Below, in pieces: positions 5,865 through 58,190 of a DNA stretch of 61,724 nucleotides (position 1 is the stretch's first letter; each line of letters begins with the position of its first letter). The notes beneath the pieces are model-generated. The model worked only from the letters and a program-made list of their open reading frames with translations. It did no database searches and had not been told where the DNA came from. Source of the stretch: Candidatus Magasanikiibacteriota bacterium (lineage in GTDB: Bacteria; Patescibacteriota; Patescibacteriia; Magasanikbacterales; UBA922); NCBI GenBank assembly GCA_014729395.1, contig WJJZ01000004.1:1-61724 (forward strand), in the 5' to 3' direction. Position numbers and translations under genes: made by a program.

Positions 5865-7919
5865 ATGAATAAAGTTAAAAAAGCAAACAGCGCAAGGTCA
5901 AAGGTCAGGTGGGGTATAATTGGCATACTCGCGCTTTTTATTATAGCCGGTTTTTTTGATGTGCCAACCTGGGCAAACAAAGCGATTGATACGGTTAATA
6001 ATACCGCATATTTAGGTATACCCAGAATTCCCGAAAAGGGTTTTAATCTTGGGTTGGATTTACAGGGCGGCGCTCATCTTATTTACCAGGCGGATGTCAG
6101 TGGAATAAAAGAAAGTGAAAAAGGTGCTGCAGTAGAAGGGGTTAGAGATGTGATTGAAAGAAGAGTGAACGCAATCGGTGTCTCTGAACCTAATGTACAA
6201 ACCACCAAAGTGGGAAACGATTATCGAGTTATTGTGGAATTACCCGGGGTAACCGATATAAACGAAGCTATTAACATGATTGGCGAGACTCCAATTTTGG
6301 AATTTAAAGAAGAAAATGATGAGCCGCAAAGAGAGCTAACTGAAGGAGAGAAGCAGCAATTGAGTGATAATAATTTACAAGCAGCTCAAAAAGCTACTGA
6401 GGCTTTGGATAAGATTAAAGAAGGGGCTGAATTTGGTGAGATTGCAAAAGAGTATTCAGAAGATGAATTAAGTAAAAATAATGGCGGTTATTTGGGTTAT
6501 ATTGACAGATCTTCGCCTTATCCCGCGCTTTATTCATGGGCCGAAAATGCTCAAGAGGGGGATTTGGGAGAATTGGTTCAGTCAAGCGAGGGTTTAAACA
6601 TACTTAAAAGAGGAGCTGAACGAGACGGTCAGGTGGAAGTGGAAGCCAGTCATATTTTAATTTGTTATCAAGGAACACAATTTTGTCCTGATAACGAATT
6701 GACTAAAGACGAAGCGTTTTTAAAAGCTCAGTCACTTTTCCATGAAGCAAATGCGGAAAATTTTAGCGATTTGGCAAAAGAAAATTCCACAGATCCCGGG
6801 ACAAAAGATGTTGGTGGTGATCTGGGTTGGATAAGTAAAGGTCTACTTGTTACCGAAGTTGATGAGCCGCTTTTTTCATCTGAAGTTGGTCAAATAATCG
6901 GTCCGGTTGAATCTCCTTTCGGTTATCATATTTTATATAAAAAGAATCAAAGAGTAGGTAAAGAATATGAAATTTGGCGAATACTGGTAAAGACCATGAC
7001 AGCGGCAGACATTTTACCTCCTGATGATCCTTGGAAAAATACAGGATTATCCGGTAAGCAGCTTGAAAAAGCGGAAGTGGTTTCAGATCCACAAACCGGA
7101 GCTATACAGGTTTCTCTGTTGTTTGACGAAGAAGGAAAAGATTTATTTAAAGAACTTACAGAAAGAAATATCAGCAAACCGATAGCAATATTTCTAGATG
7201 GAGCACCGATTAGTATTCCAACCGTAAATAGTGTAATCCCGGATGGTAGAGCTGTAATTCAGGGTAATTTTAATCTAAGTGAGGCACAATTGTTGGCACA
7301 GAGATTAAATGCCGGTGCTCTGCCGGTTCCGGTTGAGCTGATTGCTCAGCAGAGTATTGGTGCCAGCTTGGGTGCCGAATCATTACAAAAAAGTTTGAAA
7401 GCCGGTATTGTCGGTTTGATCTTAGTAATGCTTTTCATGCTGATTTATTATAGATTGCCCGGTTTGGTGTCTGTTTTTTCTCTTACTTTGTATATCACTT
7501 TGACACTGGCCATTTTCAAATTGATCGGCGTTACTTTGACATTGGCCGGAATCGCAGGATTTATTTTGTCAATCGGTATGGCGGTTGATGCAAATGTTCT
7601 GATTTTTGAGAGATTAAAAGAAGAGCTTAAAGAAGGTAAAAGTCTAAAGGCCGCGGTTGAAGAAGGATTTTTACGAGCATGGACGTCTATCAGGGATGGG
7701 AATATTTCCACGCTGATTACTTGTGTACTGTTAATTTGGTTTGGTTCCAGTTTTGTGCAAGGTTTTGCCGTAACTTTGGCAATTGGTATTTTAATCAGTA
7801 TGTTTTCGGCTATTACAGTGACGCGTGTCATCTTGAGATTTGTGGTACCTTGGTTCAAACCGGAAGGCGGTTTCATGTTTTTGGGCAGTAAAAGAGTTGA
7901 GAACAAAAAGACTGAGTAA
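5865..7919 (+). CDS. secD: protein translocase subunit SecD with inserted PpiC/parvulin-type PPIase region
   Basis: SecD signatures: 'GLDLQGGAHLIYQ', 'ETPILEF', 'IAIFLDGAPISIPTV' and C-terminal TM helices containing 'GMAVDANVLIFERLKEE'. Residues ~153-385 carry parvulin motifs: 'GGYLGYI', 'ASHILI', 'GGDLGWI', 'PFGYHILY'. Confidence 0.9.
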   Translation: MNKVKKANSARSKVRWGIIGILALFIIAGFFDVPTWANKAIDTVNNTAYLGIPRIPEKGFNLGLDLQGGAHLIYQADVSGIKESEKGAAVEGVRDVIERRVNAIGVSEPNVQTTKVGNDYRVIVELPGVTDINEAINMIGETPILEFKEENDEPQRELTEGEKQQLSDNNLQAAQKATEALDKIKEGAEFGEIAKEYSEDELSKNNGGYLGYIDRSSPYPALYSWAENAQEGDLGELVQSSEGLNILKRGAERDGQVEVEASHILICYQGTQFCPDNELTKDEAFLKAQSLFHEANAENFSDLAKENSTDPGTKDVGGDLGWISKGLLVTEVDEPLFSSEVGQIIGPVESPFGYHILYKKNQRVGKEYEIWRILVKTMTAADILPPDDPWKNTGLSGKQLEKAEVVSDPQTGAIQVSLLFDEEGKDLFKELTERNISKPIAIFLDGAPISIPTVNSVIPDGRAVIQGNFNLSEAQLLAQRLNAGALPVPVELIAQQSIGASLGAESLQKSLKAGIVGLILVMLFMLIYYRLPGLVSVFSLTLYITLTLAIFKLIGVTLTLAGIAGFILSIGMAVDANVLIFERLKEELKEGKSLKAAVEEGFLRAWTSIRDGNISTLITCVLLIWFGSSFVQGFAVTLAIGILISMFSAITVTRVILRFVVPWFKPEGGFMFLGSKRVENKKTE

Positions 7920-8892: not shown

Positions 8893-8913
8893 TTTTCTGG
8901 TATAATAAACACA

Positions 8914-8978
8914 ATCATAAATCATAAATCCTAATTCATAAAATATAAATTTATGATTTTAGACTTTAGATTTTAGAC
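8914..8978. repeat. tandem heptamer arrays (ATCATAA-type x5, TTTAGAC-type x3)
   Basis: In 7-nt register: ATCATAA ATCATAA ATCCTAA TTCATAA AATATAA (8914-8948), then TTTAGAC TTTAGAT TTTAGAC (8958-8978). AATCATAAAT and ATTTATGATT can pair. Confidence 0.8.
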
Positions 8979-8986
8979 TTATTTTT

Positions 8987-10625: not shown

Positions 10626-11768
10626 TTAGTTTATTAACCCCCTCATTTTTTCAAGAGCTAAATCTCTCAAGTCGTTTCTAGACTCGGAATACTTATATAG
10701 AATTCTCCATTCATCAAGGCTATGAGCAAGTATAGACATTTGTTCAAGAATAAAATTTTTAAAAATGGGGTCAGGTTCAGACCTATTTAAATAATTCGAA
10801 TATTCTTCAAAACTAATATTTGCCATTTTTACTTTATTCATAATTGCATTTTTAATATCCAACCTAAACTTCGCTTTTTCGTAAACAATACACAGTTCAG
10901 TAAAATTACCCGCCAATTCAGCCATTTTATTTAATGCTTTGTCTTGTATTATTTTACTATGTTCATTATTCGGACAAGATTCGTGCCATTTATTAAAATT
11001 TCGTTCAAATTCAGTCAATTTCTCCAGAACATTTATTTGCAAGTCTATAGATTCCTTATTCGAGGATTTCAAATCCCAAGTACTGTAGCATTTGATTAGT
11101 TCACTCATTTTTCTATGAATTATGTCTTTTAGTTCATTTTTTTTATTGGAATAAATGAATACATAAAACCATTGAAGAAAATTTACAGCAAATTTATACA
11201 TTTTTGTAATAGCAATTTCCCTATATTTACTACCCGGCAGAGAATGTTTGTAAATATAATGCCAGTCTTCAAAAGTATTAGCCAGTTTAACAAGTTTTTG
11301 AATTGCAATTTTGTCTAAATCATTCCAATCATCAAAACAAGCACAAAATTCCTTCCATTGTTCTGAGGTGAATTCAAAATCAATTATACGCTTCAAGGCC
11401 AAACGCAGTGACTTGCTGTCATATGAACAATTTAAAAAAAAATAACACCATTCATCAAAATTACCGGCCAATTCAGCCATTTTATCGAGAGCAATAAGTT
11501 TTATTCTACTCGACAAAGGAGCTGATTTGTAAACTTCCTCCCAATCACCAAATGTCTCACATTTTTGCTTTATTATTTTTAATATGAAATTTTCAATGTC
11601 GCTTTCCGGATTCGCATTGCAGTGTATTTTGACCAATTTTTCTATACTCAAAGATTCAAAAAATTCTTTATCCTCTGAAAGAGCGGGCCAAAGTAATACT
11701 ACGGTCAAACCAAATTTAAATTTTTTTTCCAATTCAGTAAAGGTTTTGTTTTGTTCGCTCGGTTTCAT
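10626..11768 (-). CDS. alpha-helical tandem-repeat protein (~31-residue period, ~10 repeats)
   Basis: Repeat pattern 'A..KM.ELA.NF.EW..........'; for example 'ALDKMAELAGNFDEW', 'AIQKLVKLANTFEDW', 'ALNKMAELAGNFTEL', 'ILEQMSILAHSLDEW'. A strong SD (GGAGG) lies 8 nt before the ATG. Confidence 0.7.
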   Translation of the reverse strand: MKPSEQNKTFTELEKKFKFGLTVVLLWPALSEDKEFFESLSIEKLVKIHCNANPESDIENFILKIIKQKCETFGDWEEVYKSAPLSSRIKLIALDKMAELAGNFDEWCYFFLNCSYDSKSLRLALKRIIDFEFTSEQWKEFCACFDDWNDLDKIAIQKLVKLANTFEDWHYIYKHSLPGSKYREIAITKMYKFAVNFLQWFYVFIYSNKKNELKDIIHRKMSELIKCYSTWDLKSSNKESIDLQINVLEKLTEFERNFNKWHESCPNNEHSKIIQDKALNKMAELAGNFTELCIVYEKAKFRLDIKNAIMNKVKMANISFEEYSNYLNRSEPDPIFKNFILEQMSILAHSLDEWRILYKYSESRNDLRDLALEKMRGLIN

Positions 11769-25765: not shown

Positions 25766-25836
25766 ATTGGAGACTGGAGATTAGTGACTGGAGACTATTT
25801 GACTATAAAATCAATCTCTAGTCTCCAATCACCAGT
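25766..25836. repeat. inverted heptamer array (ATTGGAG/ACTGGAG vs CTCCAAT/CACCAGT), probable terminator
   Basis: ATTGGAG ACTGGAG ATTAGTG ACTGGAG (25766-25793) and CTCTAGT CTCCAAT CACCAGT (25816-25836), followed by TTTTTATTTTTT. Confidence 0.8.
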
Positions 25837-25869: not shown

Positions 25870-26991
25870 ATGAAGAATAGCAAAGAAAGAGTTCTAGTTG
25901 CCATGTCCGGCGGGGTGGATTCATCCGTGGCGGCTTTACTATTGAAAAAAGAAGGTTATGATGTGGCTGGAGCATTCATGATAAACTACGAAGAAGAGAG
26001 TGGGAGTTCGTTTACAGGGAGCAGCGTAGCGGAGTCATGTTGGCGCGGGGATTACCGGGACGCTATTCGGGTGGCAGCTAAACTGGAAATTCCACTTATA
26101 AAATTGGACTTTAGAAAAGAATACAAGAAGTTTGTTTTGGATTATATGTTTTCTGAATATAAAACCGGTAGAACGCCAAATCCGGATGTTTTGTGTAATA
26201 AATTTATTAAATTCGGTGCGTGGTTGAAGAAGGCGAGGAAGCTCGGCTTCGAGAAGTTGGCCACTGGACATTATGCACAGCTTCGAAAAAGTAAGACTGG
26301 AGATTGGAGACTGGAGACTGGGAAAGATAAAGAAAAAGACCAGACTTATTTTTTGCACCAGTTAAATCAGGAGCAGTTAAGTCATGCTCTATTTCCAATT
26401 GGTGAATATACCAAAAAAGAAGTTAGAAATTTGGCTAAAAAATTCAATCTTGCAACAGCAGAAAAAGAAGAAAGTATGGGGATTTGTTTTGTGGGTGAAG
26501 TGCCGATGAAAGATTTTTTGATGCAGGAAATTAAATCAAAGCCTGGAAAGATTGTAACTTCAGATGCTGAGGTGATAGGTGAACATGAGGGATTAGCTTT
26601 TTATACTGTTGGCCAGCGCCATATAGGAGTTCACAGTTCACAGCCAACAGTTCACAGTCGGCAAGCGATAAATGACAGTAGACCTTTGTATGTCGTTGAT
26701 AAAAGGTTGGATACTAATGAACTCGTTGTTGGTTTTAAAGATGATCCTTTGTTATTTAAGCAAAAAATTGAAGTTAGTGAAGTAAACTGGATCGCTGGAC
26801 AGCCACCCAAATTTCCCCTAAAATGTAAAGTAAGACTTAGACATAGACAAACTCCTCAAAGAGCGGTGATCAGTGAGCGGGGAACAAAAATTTTGATAGA
26901 ATTTAAAAATGCACAACGAGCGGTAACCCCCGGGCAGTTTGCGGTTTTTTATAAAGGAGATGAATGTTTGGGGGGTGGAGTGATTTTGTAA
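25870..26991 (+). CDS. mnmA: tRNA 2-thiouridine(34) synthase MnmA
   Basis: PP-loop 'VAMSGGVDSSVAA', plus 'PNPDVLCN', 'ATGHYA', 'KDQTYFL' and 'ESMGICF'. Confidence 0.95.
   Translation: MKNSKERVLVAMSGGVDSSVAALLLKKEGYDVAGAFMINYEEESGSSFTGSSVAESCWRGDYRDAIRVAAKLEIPLIKLDFRKEYKKFVLDYMFSEYKTGRTPNPDVLCNKFIKFGAWLKKARKLGFEKLATGHYAQLRKSKTGDWRLETGKDKEKDQTYFLHQLNQEQLSHALFPIGEYTKKEVRNLAKKFNLATAEKEESMGICFVGEVPMKDFLMQEIKSKPGKIVTSDAEVIGEHEGLAFYTVGQRHIGVHSSQPTVHSRQAINDSRPLYVVDKRLDTNELVVGFKDDPLLFKQKIEVSEVNWIAGQPPKFPLKCKVRLRHRQTPQRAVISERGTKILIEFKNAQRAVTPGQFAVFYKGDECLGGGVIL
26296..26323. repeat. ACTGGAG-family heptamer array (4 units) inside mnmA
   Basis: ACTGGAG ATTGGAG ACTGGAG ACTGGGA, translated in frame as part of 'KTGDWRLETGK'. 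Confidence 0.85.
26630..26657. repeat. TTCACAG-family heptamer array (4 units) inside mnmA
   Basis: TTCACAG TTCACAG CCAACAG TTCACAG, translated in frame as part of 'VHSSQPTVHS'. Confidence 0.85.
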
Positions 26992-40428: not shown

Positions 40429-41930
40429 GTCTGCATATTGGTAGACCTTTTTTTTATTCTATTGAATATTCTATACAGAGTTGTCACAAGTTTTTCAAAA
40501 ATATTTGCGGGTTTGAGAGCAAGAGATAATATTAATACAATAAAAATAATTCCAAAGGTGTGAAATAGAGCCGGTGTAGTTATGTTTATTACGAGCATAG
40601 CGATAATTGCAGCCAAAGAACCGACATAAAAATCATGCCAATCACTTACAAATTTAATTTTATTTATTATTCTTGTTGTGGAAAAAATGTAGATTGCTAA
40701 TAAAATTATTGACCCAATGACACCTAGTTCGGCTAGCATTTCCAAGTAACCCCAGTCATATTGGCCGGTGGTTGTGTAATCGTTGCTGTTAGGGTTTAGA
40801 TATGTAAAGCTTGAGCCAAGTCCATTTCCCAGCATTGGGTTTTCACTAATTTGTTCCAATATACTTGGTAATATTATCATGCGAGTGGCCGAGCTCGTTT
40901 CTATTTTAGGACTGGCAAGGCTGGCCAATCTTACGCCAAATAATTCCCAGCCCAATGTTTTTCCGTTACTGGAAACTATTGAAAAACTTGTAAAAATTAA
41001 AACCACGAGACCAATGGTTGTACACGAAACAATAAACCACCTTGAAGCAATATGTTTGTATTTTAAAATTAACAATCCGACAAAAAGTGCCAGTAAAAAA
41101 GACCTTGATAAATTTAATACCAAAATAATAATAGATAAAAATAGTAAAATCCTCCACATTTTGTGATGGTGTTCATCACGCATTAAAAGGGATGAAATGA
41201 TCAATATTATTGGAGCAATCAATAAATGTTCGGGAAGGACAATCCTGAAAAAACCATTACCCATGTTTGTAATTTTGCCGTTTGCCGCATCTCTGAACCA
41301 TTTGTAAAAAGGTTCTTGCAACTCAACCATTCCGCTGGAAAACATGATAAAAGTAAAAATCGAAAAAAGCGCTGATCCGATAATAAATACAATTATCAAT
41401 CTTATGAAATATTCATAATTGTTTTTTTTGTTTAACAAGTGATAAGTTGGAAATACTAATGGCAGGTAAAGATATGGAATCAAATCTTGAATAATATGTT
41501 TATAATTATTTCCATTAATTATACCGTTTATACTGGCAAACATTAAAAATAAATAGAGAATAATTAAAATTATCGTAAAATATTTGTTAATTAAAAAACG
41601 CTTTCTGAACTCACGCTTCCAAATTATATGATTTGTCCACAAAAATAAAAAAATACTAATTAAAAGTGTCCTTATGGAGAGGCCTGCAAATTCCAAATAG
41701 TTACCCGAACCTCCTAAAAAAATTTCTCCAATTAAGATAAAAAAAGCCCAATCAGGGTTTTTAAAATATACAATCCCAAAAAACATTAGTAAGCTAAAAA
41801 CCAGAATTCCTTGTATAATCAAATGATTGTGAAAAGAAAACGAAACAAATCTTATTGTAAAAAAAACCAGTAGTAAAAATAAGGTTTGCCAGTTTAGAAA
41901 GATGGATTTAGTTGTGAGACGGTTAAGCAT
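40425..41930 (-). CDS. O-antigen ligase/polymerase (Wzy_C-like) membrane protein
   Basis: 501 aa, polytopic. 'LNLSRSFLLALFVGLLIL' is followed by a large loop, as expected for the family. Confidence 0.75.
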   Translation of the reverse strand: MLNRLTTKSIFLNWQTLFLLLVFFTIRFVSFSFHNHLIIQGILVFSLLMFFGIVYFKNPDWAFFILIGEIFLGGSGNYLEFAGLSIRTLLISIFLFLWTNHIIWKREFRKRFLINKYFTIILIILYLFLMFASINGIINGNNYKHIIQDLIPYLYLPLVFPTYHLLNKKNNYEYFIRLIIVFIIGSALFSIFTFIMFSSGMVELQEPFYKWFRDAANGKITNMGNGFFRIVLPEHLLIAPIILIISSLLMRDEHHHKMWRILLFLSIIILVLNLSRSFLLALFVGLLILKYKHIASRWFIVSCTTIGLVVLIFTSFSIVSSNGKTLGWELFGVRLASLASPKIETSSATRMIILPSILEQISENPMLGNGLGSSFTYLNPNSNDYTTTGQYDWGYLEMLAELGVIGSIILLAIYIFSTTRIINKIKFVSDWHDFYVGSLAAIIAMLVINITTPALFHTFGIIFIVLILSLALKPANIFEKLVTTLYRIFNRIKKRSTNMQT

Positions 41931-41944
41931 GAATTTTAAATTTA

Positions 41945-42020
41945 AAATTTTGAATTTCGAATCAATTTTAAATTTATTAATTAAAAAATTAACAATTCAA
42001 TCAAAATTTAAAATTCGAAA
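41945..42020. repeat. AT-rich inverted-repeat element, copy 1 (shares both arms with 58043-58177)
   Basis: AAATTTTGAATTT (41945-41957) and AATTCAATCAAAATT (41994-42008) recur identically at 58056-58068 and 58142-58156. Confidence 0.7.
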
Positions 42021-42023
42021 TTA

Positions 42024-42952: not shown

Positions 42953-43026
42953 AGTAGATGATAAGTGATAAGTGATAAGTGATAGCTTTTCTTAGTAAAA
43001 CTATCACTTATCATCTATCATTTATT
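42953..43026. repeat. inverted heptamer array (GATAAGT x4 vs ACTTATC/ATCTATC) between def and fmt
   Basis: GATAAGT GATAAGT GATAAGT GATAGCT (42960-42987), 18-nt loop, then ACTTATC ATCTATC ATTTATT (43006-43026). Confidence 0.85.
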
Positions 43027-43082
43027 ATTTAAAATATCTCCAAAATCAATTTTTTTATCTCGTCTCCTGGGTCAGACACTTA

Positions 43083-50189: not shown

Positions 50190-50894
50190 ATGAAAAAAGG
50201 AAAATTATATATTGTTGCTACGCCAATCGGAAATTTGGACGACATCACAATTCGTGCCATAGACACAATGAAAAGTGTTGATTTTGTAGCTTGCGAAGAT
50301 ACCAGAGTAACCAGAAAAATTTTGAATCATTACAAAATAGAAACACCAACGATTAGTTACCATCAACATAGCGGTGAGTCAAAGATGTTGGAAATTAGAG
50401 ATTTGTTGCTTTCCGGCAAAAATATCGCATTAGTAACGGATGCCGGTACTCCCGGAATTAGTGATCCGGGGAATAAGTTAATCGAGTTCATAGTTCATAG
50501 TTCACAGTTCTCAGACATTGTTCCTGTTCCGGGAGCTTCGGCAGTTACGGCAGCTTTGTCAGTATCAGGATTTCCTACAGACAAGTTTGTATTTATGGGG
50601 TTCCCGCCACATAAAAAAAGAAGAAAACAATTTTTTCAAGAAATTGCAGACAATAAATACACAACGGTTTTTTACGAATCATCGCATAGAATAAAAAAAG
50701 CTCTGCAAAATTTGGCAGAGGTGTTGGTTGAGGAAAGACAGTCCGCCTCCGCTAAAGCTTCGGCGAGACAAGTGTGTGTATGTCGTGAACTTACAAAAAA
50801 ATTTGAGAGCATTTACAGGGGTTCTGTGTCCGAGGTTGTAGGTATGGATATTACAGAAAAAGGGGAGTTCGTAGTTATAGTACGTAGTCAATAA
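50190..50894 (+). CDS. rsmI: 16S rRNA (cytidine1402-2'-O)-methyltransferase
   Basis: 'LYIVATPIGNL.DIT.RA......VD.VACEDTR.T..IL', 'DAGTPGISDPG', 'PGASA'. Confidence 0.9.
   Translation: MKKGKLYIVATPIGNLDDITIRAIDTMKSVDFVACEDTRVTRKILNHYKIETPTISYHQHSGESKMLEIRDLLLSGKNIALVTDAGTPGISDPGNKLIEFIVHSSQFSDIVPVPGASAVTAALSVSGFPTDKFVFMGFPPHKKRRKQFFQEIADNKYTTVFYESSHRIKKALQNLAEVLVEERQSASAKASARQVCVCRELTKKFESIYRGSVSEVVGMDITEKGEFVVIVRSQ
50487..50514. repeat. TTCACAG-family heptamer array (4 units) inside rsmI
   Basis: TTCATAG TTCATAG TTCACAG TTCTCAG, translated in frame as 'FIVHSSQFS'. Confidence 0.85.
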
Positions 50895-56812: not shown

Positions 56813-57601
56813 ATGGCGAGTGAAATTCACATTCCGACTTTGGCACCAGAGGTTCTGTTTCAAATAGGACCGGTGAATGTTACCAACACAATGATAAACG
56901 CATGGATTGCGATAATAATATTTCTTATTTTGGGGATTTTTATAAAAAAAAGAATAAATTTAAGCCCGGGTAAACTACAGAACTATTCTGAATATTTTTT
57001 GGATAAGTTATTGGGTTATTTTGACCAGGTTACGGGAGATCGTAAAAAAACAATTGGCTTTTTACCGATTGTCGGATCGATCTTCTTTTTTATTTTATTA
57101 TCAAATTGGCTTGGTCTGTTGCCGGGCACCGGGAGTATAATGGTAGGACACAGTATGTTGCTTAGACCGGCCAACACAGATTTGAACCTTACGGTTGCTA
57201 TGGCACTGGTTGCGGTTGTTAGTTCACATATATTTGGTTTTGTTGCGATCGGTTTTTTTACTCATCTGGGAAAATTTATTCAAATAGGCAATATTTTAAA
57301 GAGTTTCAAAAAAGGCCCAATGGCTATTTTTACAGCTATAATAGAATTTGGTGTTGGTTTACTGGAAATAATTTCTGAAATTGCCAAAGTCTTATCACTG
57401 TCTTTACGTCTGTTTGGGAATATATTTGCCGGTGAAGTATTGATTTCAGTAATAAGCGCTCTTGTTGCAGCTCTTGCACCAGCTCCATTTATGCTTTTGG
57501 AAGTTTTGGTCGGTATTATCCAGGCCAGTGTGTTTGCAATGCTTACATTGGTTTATTTAACGGTTGCTACGAGTAAACCGCATGGGGCGGAAGAACATTA
57601 A
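56813..57601 (+). CDS. atpB: F0 ATP synthase subunit a
   Basis: 'LSLSLRLFGNIFAGEVL' (conserved Arg helix), polytopic. Confidence 0.93.
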   Translation: MASEIHIPTLAPEVLFQIGPVNVTNTMINAWIAIIIFLILGIFIKKRINLSPGKLQNYSEYFLDKLLGYFDQVTGDRKKTIGFLPIVGSIFFFILLSNWLGLLPGTGSIMVGHSMLLRPANTDLNLTVAMALVAVVSSHIFGFVAIGFFTHLGKFIQIGNILKSFKKGPMAIFTAIIEFGVGLLEIISEIAKVLSLSLRLFGNIFAGEVLISVISALVAALAPAPFMLLEVLVGIIQASVFAMLTLVYLTVATSKPHGAEEH

Positions 57602-57674
57602 CAACAGTTCACAGTGATCAGTTCACAGTTAGCAGGATTATATCCTCTGTTGGTTGTGAACTGAAAACTGCGAA
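57601..57674. repeat. inverted heptamer array (TTCACAG family) between atpB and atpE
   Basis: ACAACAG TTCACAG TGATCAG TTCACAG TTAGCAG (57601-57635), 11-nt loop, then CTGTTGG TTGTGAA CTGAAAA CTGCGAA (57647-57674). It begins on the last base of the atpB TAA. Confidence 0.85.
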
Positions 57675-58042: not shown

Positions 58043-58177
58043 AATTTTGGATTTCAAATTTTGAATTTTGAGTAAATTTCAAATGATTTAATTTTAAACT
58101 TGTCCTGAAAGTTTTGAATGATTAATTCATTAGTAATTAAAAATTCAATCAAAATTCATAATTCAAAATTCATAATT
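58043..58177. repeat. AT-rich inverted heptamer element, copy 2 (AATTTTG vs CAAAATT/CATAATT)
   Basis: AATTTTG GATTTCA AATTTTG AATTTTG (58043-58070) and CAAAATT CATAATT CAAAATT CATAATT (58150-58177). Confidence 0.75.
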
Positions 58178-58190
58178 AAATTATAATAAT

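Follow-up and report, generated by a model that had tools for sequence, protein, structure and literature searches.

A tandem array of TTCACAG-type heptamers, read in frame, in a variable loop of MnmA in Magasanikbacteria-like Patescibacteria

Background

How does a tandem array of seven-base units come to lie in frame inside the gene of a conserved, essential enzyme, and how is it kept there? The question is raised by contig WJJZ01000004.1 (assembly GCA_014729395.1) of a Candidatus Magasanikiibacteriota bacterium, whose 61,724 nucleotides are called the window in this text. Its mnmA gene, which encodes tRNA 2-thiouridine(34) synthase (25870..26991, + strand), contains an array of TTCACAG-type heptamers. 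A preliminary description, made from the bases of the window, had reported this array, its translation, matching words at two other loci and a second kind of array in the same gene. The data presented below suggest that the mnmA array is probably a heptanucleotide array of the type known as long simple sequence repeats (LSSR) or short tandemly repeated repetitive sequences (STRR), one that arose in place, was inherited vertically, changes by slippage in three-unit steps and is tolerated in a protein loop.

The locus bears on why seven-base tandem repeats are favoured in many bacteria, as noted in the STRR reports of 1990 and the long simple sequence repeat survey of 2007. According to that survey, as it is summarized in two later papers, no class of long simple sequence repeats is more abundant in many prokaryotes than the heptanucleotide one, for which slippage of the polymerase was proposed as the cause (Mrazek et al. 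2007, in PMC4679880 and PMC4692102). The present case, set in a reduced Patescibacteria genome, is small and well controlled: lineages in which about one third of the residues differ have one array in common, at corresponding codons of an essential enzyme. Changes shared by all units, a three-unit step that preserves the frame, and sister lineages free of arrays make the persistence of the array, its homogenisation and the limits set by translation measurable.

Results

The TTCACAG array in mnmA

The bases at 26630-26657 read TTCACAG TTCACAG CCAACAG TTCACAG, exactly as first described, and the third unit is off by three of seven bases. Tandem Repeats Finder calls a period-7 array of 4.4 units at 26628-26658 (+ strand), in the phase GTTCACA GTTCACA GCCAACA GTTCACA GT. 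Base 26630 is at codon position 2 and the array corresponds to residues ~254-264 (VHSSQPTVHS). The frame of the open reading frame (ORF) 25870..26991 agrees with the translation given earlier, and with its place between TVGQR and LYVVDK: the array is translated as GVHSSQPTVHSR (G-V-H-S-S-Q-P-T-V-H-S-R), flanked by TVGQR and PLYVVDK. The net insertion at this site, called site 2 below, is 21 nt (three units) and not 28, because the first unit overlies conserved Gly-Val codons.

The array is far beyond chance. In the window, the pattern (TTCACAG)x4 with at most 3 mismatches has 2 matches (26630 and 50487) vs 0.00 in 100 dinucleotide shuffles, and a 14-mer of TTCACAG units with at most 2 mismatches has 5 vs 0.39 in the shuffles. 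The excess is one of period 7: strict three-copy arrays number 4 at this period vs 0.02 in dinucleotide shuffles, and zero at periods 6 and 8-15. The word matches reported in the preliminary description can also be found in the bases. The rsmI array (50487-50514, in a TP_methylase/RsmI gene) is TTCATAG TTCATAG TTCACAG TTCTCAG, and the atpB-atpE spacer (57601-57674) has two exact TTCACAG units in an imperfect left arm, plus an inverted arm. Likewise, mnmA does carry two word families, since a GGAGACT-family array lies at 26294-26324 (site 1) and the same family is present again 500 bp upstream (25768-25833).

The MnmA protein and its site-2 loop

The intact ORF of 373 amino acids (aa) was identified by Pfam, PDB and alignment. 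It has the Pfam domains PF03054, PF20259 and PF20258 and matches solved MnmA structures over its full length (PDB E 1e-95), and its residues S13-S18 (PP-loop SGGVDS), C109 and C206 (catalytic Cys) are invariant alignment columns. With the PP-loop, the two catalytic cysteines and the three-domain architecture, the protein is a member of the MnmA family, and its best named relatives are from Candidatus Magasanikbacteria and Patescibacteria. The AlphaFold model (AF2) has a mean predicted local distance difference test (pLDDT) of 82.7 and a predicted template modelling score (pTM) of 0.81.

The segment from GQR to PLYVVDK varies in length from ~9 to >50 aa in an alignment of 120 homologues, and residues 256-261 within it have pLDDT <50 in the model. 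Instead of being conserved across distant MnmA homologues, the loop differs in homologues and structures. The E. coli residues quoted for this position are indeed those of the 2DER MnmA, GLGIGGTK..E..GTEEPW. Relative to solved MnmA (9hlv/2hma, 2DER), and also to the closest relative L001, the loop in the window protein has a net gain of 7 aa. A loop that is variable and of low pLDDT, together with this gain, argues that the array lengthens what is, by the model, a flexible loop.

Other Patescibacteria MnmA proteins (P0038, P0049, P0014/P0024, P0053, P0068, P0072, P0077) have other repeat-like peptides in the site-2 loop, for example PAKAGIQT..SRVRGND, CHSERSEES.. and SFRAESRNPLN. These peptides resemble translations of widespread palindromic repeat elements. 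Repeats seem to have landed or expanded repeatedly in the site-2 loop. In the N-terminal part of the window protein, residues ~45-54 (25996-26035) form an extra segment, SSFTGSSVAE, which is a low-occupancy insertion with pLDDT <50. Its DNA (GAGTTCGTTTACAGGGAGCAGCGTAGCGGAG) holds TTTACAG, and CAG spaced by 7 nt; the signal is weak, and the segment could be a decayed TTCACAG-type array.

Arrays at the same codons in relatives

The site-2 array is not confined to the genome of the window, and orthologous four-unit arrays are present at the same site in relatives. At the site-2 codons, L002 (65% protein identity) and L207 (63%) each carry four units that belong to the word family of the window array: GTTCAGA GTTCACA GTTCGGA GTTCATA in L002 and GTTGAAA GTTCAAA GCTAAAA GTTCAAG in L207, to be compared with GTTCACA GTTCACA GCCAACA GTTCACA in the window. 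The third unit is the most deviant one in all three alike. The change is concerted: at one position of the word, every one of the four window units has C and every one of the four L207 units has A. The units are read in different frames, so that this parallel C/A difference is a DNA-level event and not the outcome of amino-acid selection.

In L001 (73% identity), site 2 reads ATTCATG GTTCACA G, which leaves it three units, exactly 21 nt, short of the window; this is the one whole-unit length difference found among the relatives. AGTCAAA-type arrays occupy site 2 in L205 and L206, and GGGATCA/GTGATCA units in L204. The gene is in frame in all seven sequenced relatives. The arrays are restricted to this lineage. 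L208 and L209, in which mnmA is intact, have GGT GTA AAA ACA at the site-2 codons and stand apart from the seven array-bearing mnmA genes in a neighbour-joining tree. No arrays were found in their mnmA genes, and none or only weak AT-rich ones across 21 kb of syntenic DNA. Within 90% clusters, lengths differ mainly at the termini; indels in the interior occur in the same loops and are not clean 7-aa multiples. In L002, a third in-frame heptamer array (10983-11012, GAATGTA type, encoding QNVECRIEN) lies in the MnmA C-terminal domain, where the window has no array.

In the current dataset, 149 kb of Magasanik-type loci contain 16.8 period-7 arrays per 100 kb, vs 2.0 at period 6 and 0.7 at period 8, and 944 kb of other bacterial MnmA loci contain 2.2 period-7 arrays per 100 kb. 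The latter loci come from a metagenome scan with very general peptide patterns, with matches of at most 47% identity, and serve as controls only. In the window and five related loci, arrays span 21-39 nt (median 30), and there are 8 arrays of three units, 22 of four, 15 of five and 1 of six. An excess of arrays inside mnmA itself (13 in ~7 kb vs ~0.2/kb elsewhere) is not claimed, since four of the loci had been picked for repetitive-looking loops.

Up to five population contigs of P0011, whose genome has heptamer arrays in mnmA and just downstream, differ only by a few base substitutions and one GATT slip. In population contigs of one relative, L210 (5103-5106) and L211, one GATT unit differs (AAGATTGATTGATAG vs AAGATTGATAG) in a DUF4153 gene, which as a result is two ORFs in two samples. 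It may reflect either a frameshift by tetranucleotide slippage or a discrepancy between assemblies. A faint Pfam match to Y1_Tnp (PF01797) in an edge gene of L204 (1-100) is the sole hint of a transposase of the repetitive extragenic palindromic (REP) type near the array-rich loci.

The rsmI array and the limits set by translation

The second coding array of this word, in rsmI (50485..50514, + strand), encodes EFIVHSSQFS. It overlies a native segment and adds only 2 residues relative to solved RsmI. Since 7 has no factor in common with 3, the cyclic peptide FTVHSSQ results whichever frame a sense TTCACAG array is read in. The complement, CTGTGAA, has TGA in all three frames, and therefore the word can be coding in the sense orientation only. 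The arrays in mnmA and rsmI are accordingly both sense and both give VHSSQ. It had been proposed to ask whether coding TTCACAG arrays share one reading frame; they do share strand and peptide, but the check cannot discriminate, all sense frames being alike. The consensus word of the rsmI array, TTCATAG, would read TAG in one frame, and the unit that stands in that frame is TTCACAG (unit 3, with C). Elsewhere in rsmI (50735-50765) there is a second extra segment in frame, the 10-aa QSASAKASAR, which is not in solved RsmI structures; its DNA (CAGTCCGCCTCCGCTAAAGCTTCGGCGAGA) is GC-rich, partly palindromic and unlike the heptamer arrays.

The site-1 array and the hairpin upstream

The site-1 array of mnmA (26294..26324, + strand; GGAGACT family) consists of ACTGGAG ATTGGAG ACTGGAG ACTGGGA and encodes TGDWRLETG. 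There is no gap here in the PDB alignment (KTGDWRLETGKD vs DEDGTVHMLRGVD), so that the length is unchanged relative to solved MnmA. The array overlies a beta-hairpin that is ordered in the AF2 model (strands E135-140 and E146-150, pLDDT ~87). The site-1 words differ between genomes, being ACTGGAG in the window, ATTGGTC in L207 and GTTACCA in L204, and all of them put Gly/Ala, Trp/Tyr and Leu at structurally conserved positions. The core of the word (YTGG or TTAC) gives the Leu and Trp/Tyr codons of the beta-hairpin, and in the YTGG-type words the 3' GG also starts the Gly codon.

Just upstream of mnmA lies an intergenic hairpin (25768..25833, + strand), composed of a GGAGACT-family arm (25768-25796) and an inverted arm (25812-25833), with a fold of -28.9 kcal/mol (z -4.95). 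Two genomes, those of the window and of L204, have one word family in both the site-1 array and the spacer array that directly precedes mnmA: GGAGACT in the window (25768-25833 and 26294-26324) and AATTTYG/GAATTTC in L204 (9941-9974 and 10411-10445). In L204 the site-1 coding array is followed by a partial inverted arm, with everything in frame. The site-1 array of L207 (1877-1898) has three TTGGTCA units; this is the word of cyanobacterial STRR2, and the agreement could be a coincidence.

Heptamer arrays elsewhere in the window

A lenient detector finds 13 period-7 arrays in the 61.7 kb, and the lower-identity arrays at 25768 and 57601 are counted on top of these. Ten of the 13 are intergenic, within the ~9% of the window that is non-coding; the other three are in genes, two in mnmA and one in the RsmI-type methyltransferase gene. 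Spacer arrays mostly consist of an array and an inverted array and have strong folds. The three coding arrays are single-armed and none of them folds (z -0.7 to +1.3; -0.69 for the mnmA TTCACAG array).

The atpB-atpE spacer hairpin (57601..57674, + strand) has the left arm CAACAGT TCACAGT GATCAGT TCACAGT TAGCAGG and a right arm that is an imperfect inverted copy (-32 kcal/mol, z -5.1). A second strong hairpin, in the def-fmt spacer (42955..43031, - strand), combines a TGATAAG array with an inverted TATCAYT array (-27.7 kcal/mol, z -6.0). AATTTTG and TCAAAAT arrays, inverted, lie between atpE and atpF (58043..58180, + strand; z -3.75), and an inverted pair of AATTTTG/CAAAATT-type arrays lies between the gene of a Wzy_C-domain protein (O-antigen-ligase family) and fmt (41930..42022, - strand; z -2.0). 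Downstream of secF there are two adjacent arrays, AATCATA and TTTAGAC (8913..8980, + strand), which are partly self-complementary and fold weakly (z -1.8). A simple consensus scan flagged none of the spacer hairpins as intrinsic terminators, and neither Rfam families nor tRNA genes were found in the window. The window also encodes, at 5865-7919, a SecD with an internal PPIC-type rotamase (peptidyl-prolyl isomerase) domain (Pfam Rotamase_3, residues ~246-357), as does L205; this fusion is unusual and unrelated to the heptamer array.

The word family in other genomes

In the genome collection, (TTCANAG)x3 has at least 120 matches vs ~17 estimated for uniform random sequence, a baseline that does not take other heptamers into account. 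Among the matches listed, the phyla include Bacteroidota, Acidobacteriota, Verrucomicrobiota, cyanobacteria, Patescibacteria and others, and the arrays often adjoin variant arrays that differ by one or two mutations, often as an array plus an inverted array. Tandem variant arrays of this kind are the usual signature of mutation plus slippage. Beyond 300 nt from the seed, the 8-kb loci around the matches listed contain another 136 heptamer arrays; the TTCANAG word family is enriched among them (11 exact vs 0.7 expected), and most use other words. At several loci (L010, L019, L027, L035, L039, L093, L094 and L117, from Acidobacteriota, Methylomirabilis and others) TTCAAAG-type arrays are followed by an inverted (CTTTGAA)n array. 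This layout is the array-hairpin architecture of the window spacers, and L038 has six such arrays in 8 kb, ~100 nt apart.

Discussion

Origin of the mnmA array

The explanation that we consider probable is that of an LSSR/STRR-type array. A sub-lineage of Magasanikbacteria-like Patescibacteria carries many heptamer arrays of ~4-5 units (~30 nt) each. In the ancestor of this sub-lineage, the array in mnmA most likely arose in place, by expansion of a native heptamer at the Gly-Val codons (GGA GTT), and it would since have been passed on vertically. The site-2 codons of the array-free relatives, GGT GTA AAA ACA, support such an in-place seed. The units may have been kept alike by slippage or by short-patch templated correction, and in coding DNA the array could change its length only by three units at a time (21 nt, seven codons), a step that separates the window from L001. 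The array is read as the cyclic peptide VHSSQ(F/P)T and makes a flexible surface loop seven residues longer. The array is presumably tolerated because the loop is permissive, and it probably adds nothing specific to MnmA. What the data show directly is that the array exists and is not random, that period 7 is specifically in excess, that the array lies in the loop, that it differs by a 21-nt step and has orthologues with concerted change, that its orientation is constrained and that such arrays are restricted to the lineage; that slippage generated the units and keeps them alike, that the array arose in place and that it is neutral is what we infer.

Several observations weigh against this explanation. 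Near-identical contigs showed no polymorphism in unit number, and L002 and L003 are 100% identical over 12.4 kb. The P0011 population contigs show no heptamer-array differences in mnmA (five contigs) or just downstream (the three that reach there); in the same contigs a GATT tetranucleotide tract slipped and the heptamer arrays did not. Three loci within 62 kb have the TTCACAG family, and unrelated loci have words in common more often than independent slippage would lead one to expect: among 48 arrays there are 18 exact word-class pairs vs 2.7 under the null, and 0 of 300 permutations reached 18. Unit numbers peak at 4-5, with none above 6 and no decay from the threshold, although loss of detection near three units may contribute to this shape. 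Finally, segments of native length underlie two coding arrays out of three, those at mnmA site 1 and in rsmI, and for this simple expansion is no explanation.

In view of these features, the arrays could also be, in place of passive slippage products, the footprint of a lineage-specific, sequence-directed process, such as templated short-patch conversion or dispersal, which has a limited heptamer vocabulary and a set size of ~4 units and rewrites spacers into hairpins and native coding segments at unchanged length. We consider such a process unlikely. A copy of a small mobile or dispersed element, brought in by transposition or gene conversion and representing one arm of the spacer hairpins, is a rather unlikely source too; REP sequences and their hairpin-forming doublets (REPIN), miniature inverted-repeat transposable elements (MITE) and Rickettsia palindromic elements (RPE) would be the parallels. 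This possibility fits the words that are common to unrelated loci and genomes well above the null, such as GTGATAA, found at different loci in the window, L002 and L207, or AATTTTG in the window, L204 and L206, and it fits the characteristic array size of ~30 nt. The mnmA array and the atpB-atpE left arm share a longer stretch, CCAACAG being followed by TTCACAGT in the former and ACAACAG by TTCACAGT in the latter, and CAGTTCACAGCCAACAG agrees at 16 of 17 bases with the reverse complement of the right arm. The use of one word for the upstream spacer array and the site-1 array in the window and L204, the in-frame array plus partial inverted arm at site 1 of L204, and apparent translations of unrelated palindromic repeats in the site-2 loop of other relatives are in line with it as well. 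However, the array has orthologues in relatives at 63-65% identity that match it in position, in number of units and in having a deviant third unit, and therefore was not inserted recently. It starts exactly on conserved native codons, and has no defined ends, flanking similarity or target duplication; copies of the arrays are not near-identical, and the coding arrays do not fold. No transposase, Y1_Tnp included, was found in 41 scanned ORFs of the window, 15 of the 56 in the working gene list being outside the scan.

The remaining possibilities assign a function to the array. As nucleic acid, it might be a putative site for a heptamer-binding protein, or its mRNA might pair with the CTGTGAA-type arm at 57650-57674 and so couple the expression of mnmA, rsmI and atp. 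Nucleotide periodicity is indeed kept where synonymous sites should be saturated, the spacer hairpins lie within operons (def-fmt, atpB-atpE-atpF) and are very stable, and binding of a regulator has been proposed for the TAACTGA repeats (PMC4679880). We nevertheless hold such a role to be improbable, given that an intact mnmA goes with no array or a reduced one in L001 and with none in L208 and L209, that the words at one site differ between lineages, and that there was no Rfam match and no terminator among the hairpins in the simple consensus scan. It is very improbable that the inserted peptide VHSSQPTVHS was itself selected for a role in MnmA, for example contact with tRNA or a partner, with the DNA periodicity as a by-product. 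MnmA does bind tRNA, with the loop placed between its central and its C-terminal domain, and relatives have similar peptides (GVQSSQFGVHS, GVESSKLKVQG), but a 7-nt period with each unit in a different frame cannot be produced by selection on the protein, the parallel C/A change in all four units occurred at the DNA level, and the loop is hypervariable, missing in L001 and of low model confidence. Phase variation can hardly be credited at all. Gain or loss of one unit would shift the frame of mnmA, and likewise of rsmI, and so switch RNA modification; both coding TTCACAG arrays are in RNA-modification genes, and a non-triplet repeat within a gene is the classical architecture of a switch. On the other hand, there are only four imperfect units with a CCAACAG interruption, all seven sequenced relatives are in frame and the unit number is four in three lineages. 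The five P0011 population contigs are moreover identical in mnmA, heptamer array included, even though their GATT tract slipped, and the downstream heptamer arrays are identical in the three contigs that reach them.

For annotation, the consequence is that length-variable loops of Candidate Phyla Radiation (CPR) proteins can be repeat-derived filler, and that 7-aa periodic peptides should not be taken as functional motifs. If the sequence-directed process should turn out to be true, repeat DNA would be a direct driver of the evolution of protein loops, and even strands, in reduced CPR genomes.

Comparison with known repeat families

The arrays described here share many properties with LSSR (Mrazek, Guo and Shah 2007) and STRR (Mazel et al. 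1990). The mnmA array has head-to-tail 7-nt units in at least three copies, and the window arrays are dispersed, mostly intergenic and enriched over chance at period 7 specifically; as in the known families, there are several words per genome and slippage is the proposed cause. LSSR/STRR arrays have few to tens of copies, whereas those found here are short and uniform, with 3-6 units. The present arrays also differ in their Patescibacteria host, in that many are paired into hairpins, and in that several are in frame in conserved housekeeping enzymes. The canonical STRR words, CCCCAGT, TTGGTCA and CAACAGT, differ from TTCACAG. In the strict sense of canonical words in a cyanobacterial host, the mnmA array is therefore not an STRR, its word being TTCACAG and its host Magasanikbacteria-like; the CAACAGT contained in its CCAACAG TT unit is a resemblance only.

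The TAACTGA repeats of Beggiatoaceae, cyanobacteria and Bacteroidetes are similar in that one heptamer occurs at many loci in scattered phyla (MacGregor 2015, PMC4679880). Their few copies in ORFs are in the stop-free orientation only and give a 7-aa periodic peptide (PMC4679880). In contrast to the arrays here, which show no association with start codons, TAACTGA repeats are mostly just upstream of start codons, and those in ORFs encode protein termini or parts of hypothetical proteins, whereas ours are in internal loops and a folded beta-hairpin of conserved enzymes (PMC4679880). In Xanthomonas and Nostoc, GGGNATC repeats likewise form dispersed arrays of heptamers and markedly favour about four units (Rehm et al. 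2015, PMC4692102). Coding DNA has fewer of them than expected and the spacers between ORFs of the same orientation have more; the bias towards four units was ascribed to G-quadruplex formation (PMC4692102). This explanation does not carry over to the present arrays, because their heptamer words are without G-tracts.

RPE and other in-frame insertions of MITE or REP sequences resemble the mnmA array insofar as surface loops of housekeeping proteins accommodate repeat DNA. RPEs are reportedly palindromic elements of ~100-150 bp that were inserted as units. Unlike them, the mnmA array is 28-31 nt long with a net insertion of 21 nt, tandem, non-palindromic and orthologous across relatives. It also lacks the inverted-pair hairpin of REP/REPIN sequences, a structure that is present in the spacers at 25768, 42955 and 57601, and its four imperfect units are not the long near-perfect tract with out-of-frame variants that marks a contingency locus. 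A literature search found no reports of heptamer repeats in Patescibacteria. The over-representation of heptamer repeats in bacteria is already published; new here are the phylum, Patescibacteria, and the presence of such arrays inside conserved enzymes.

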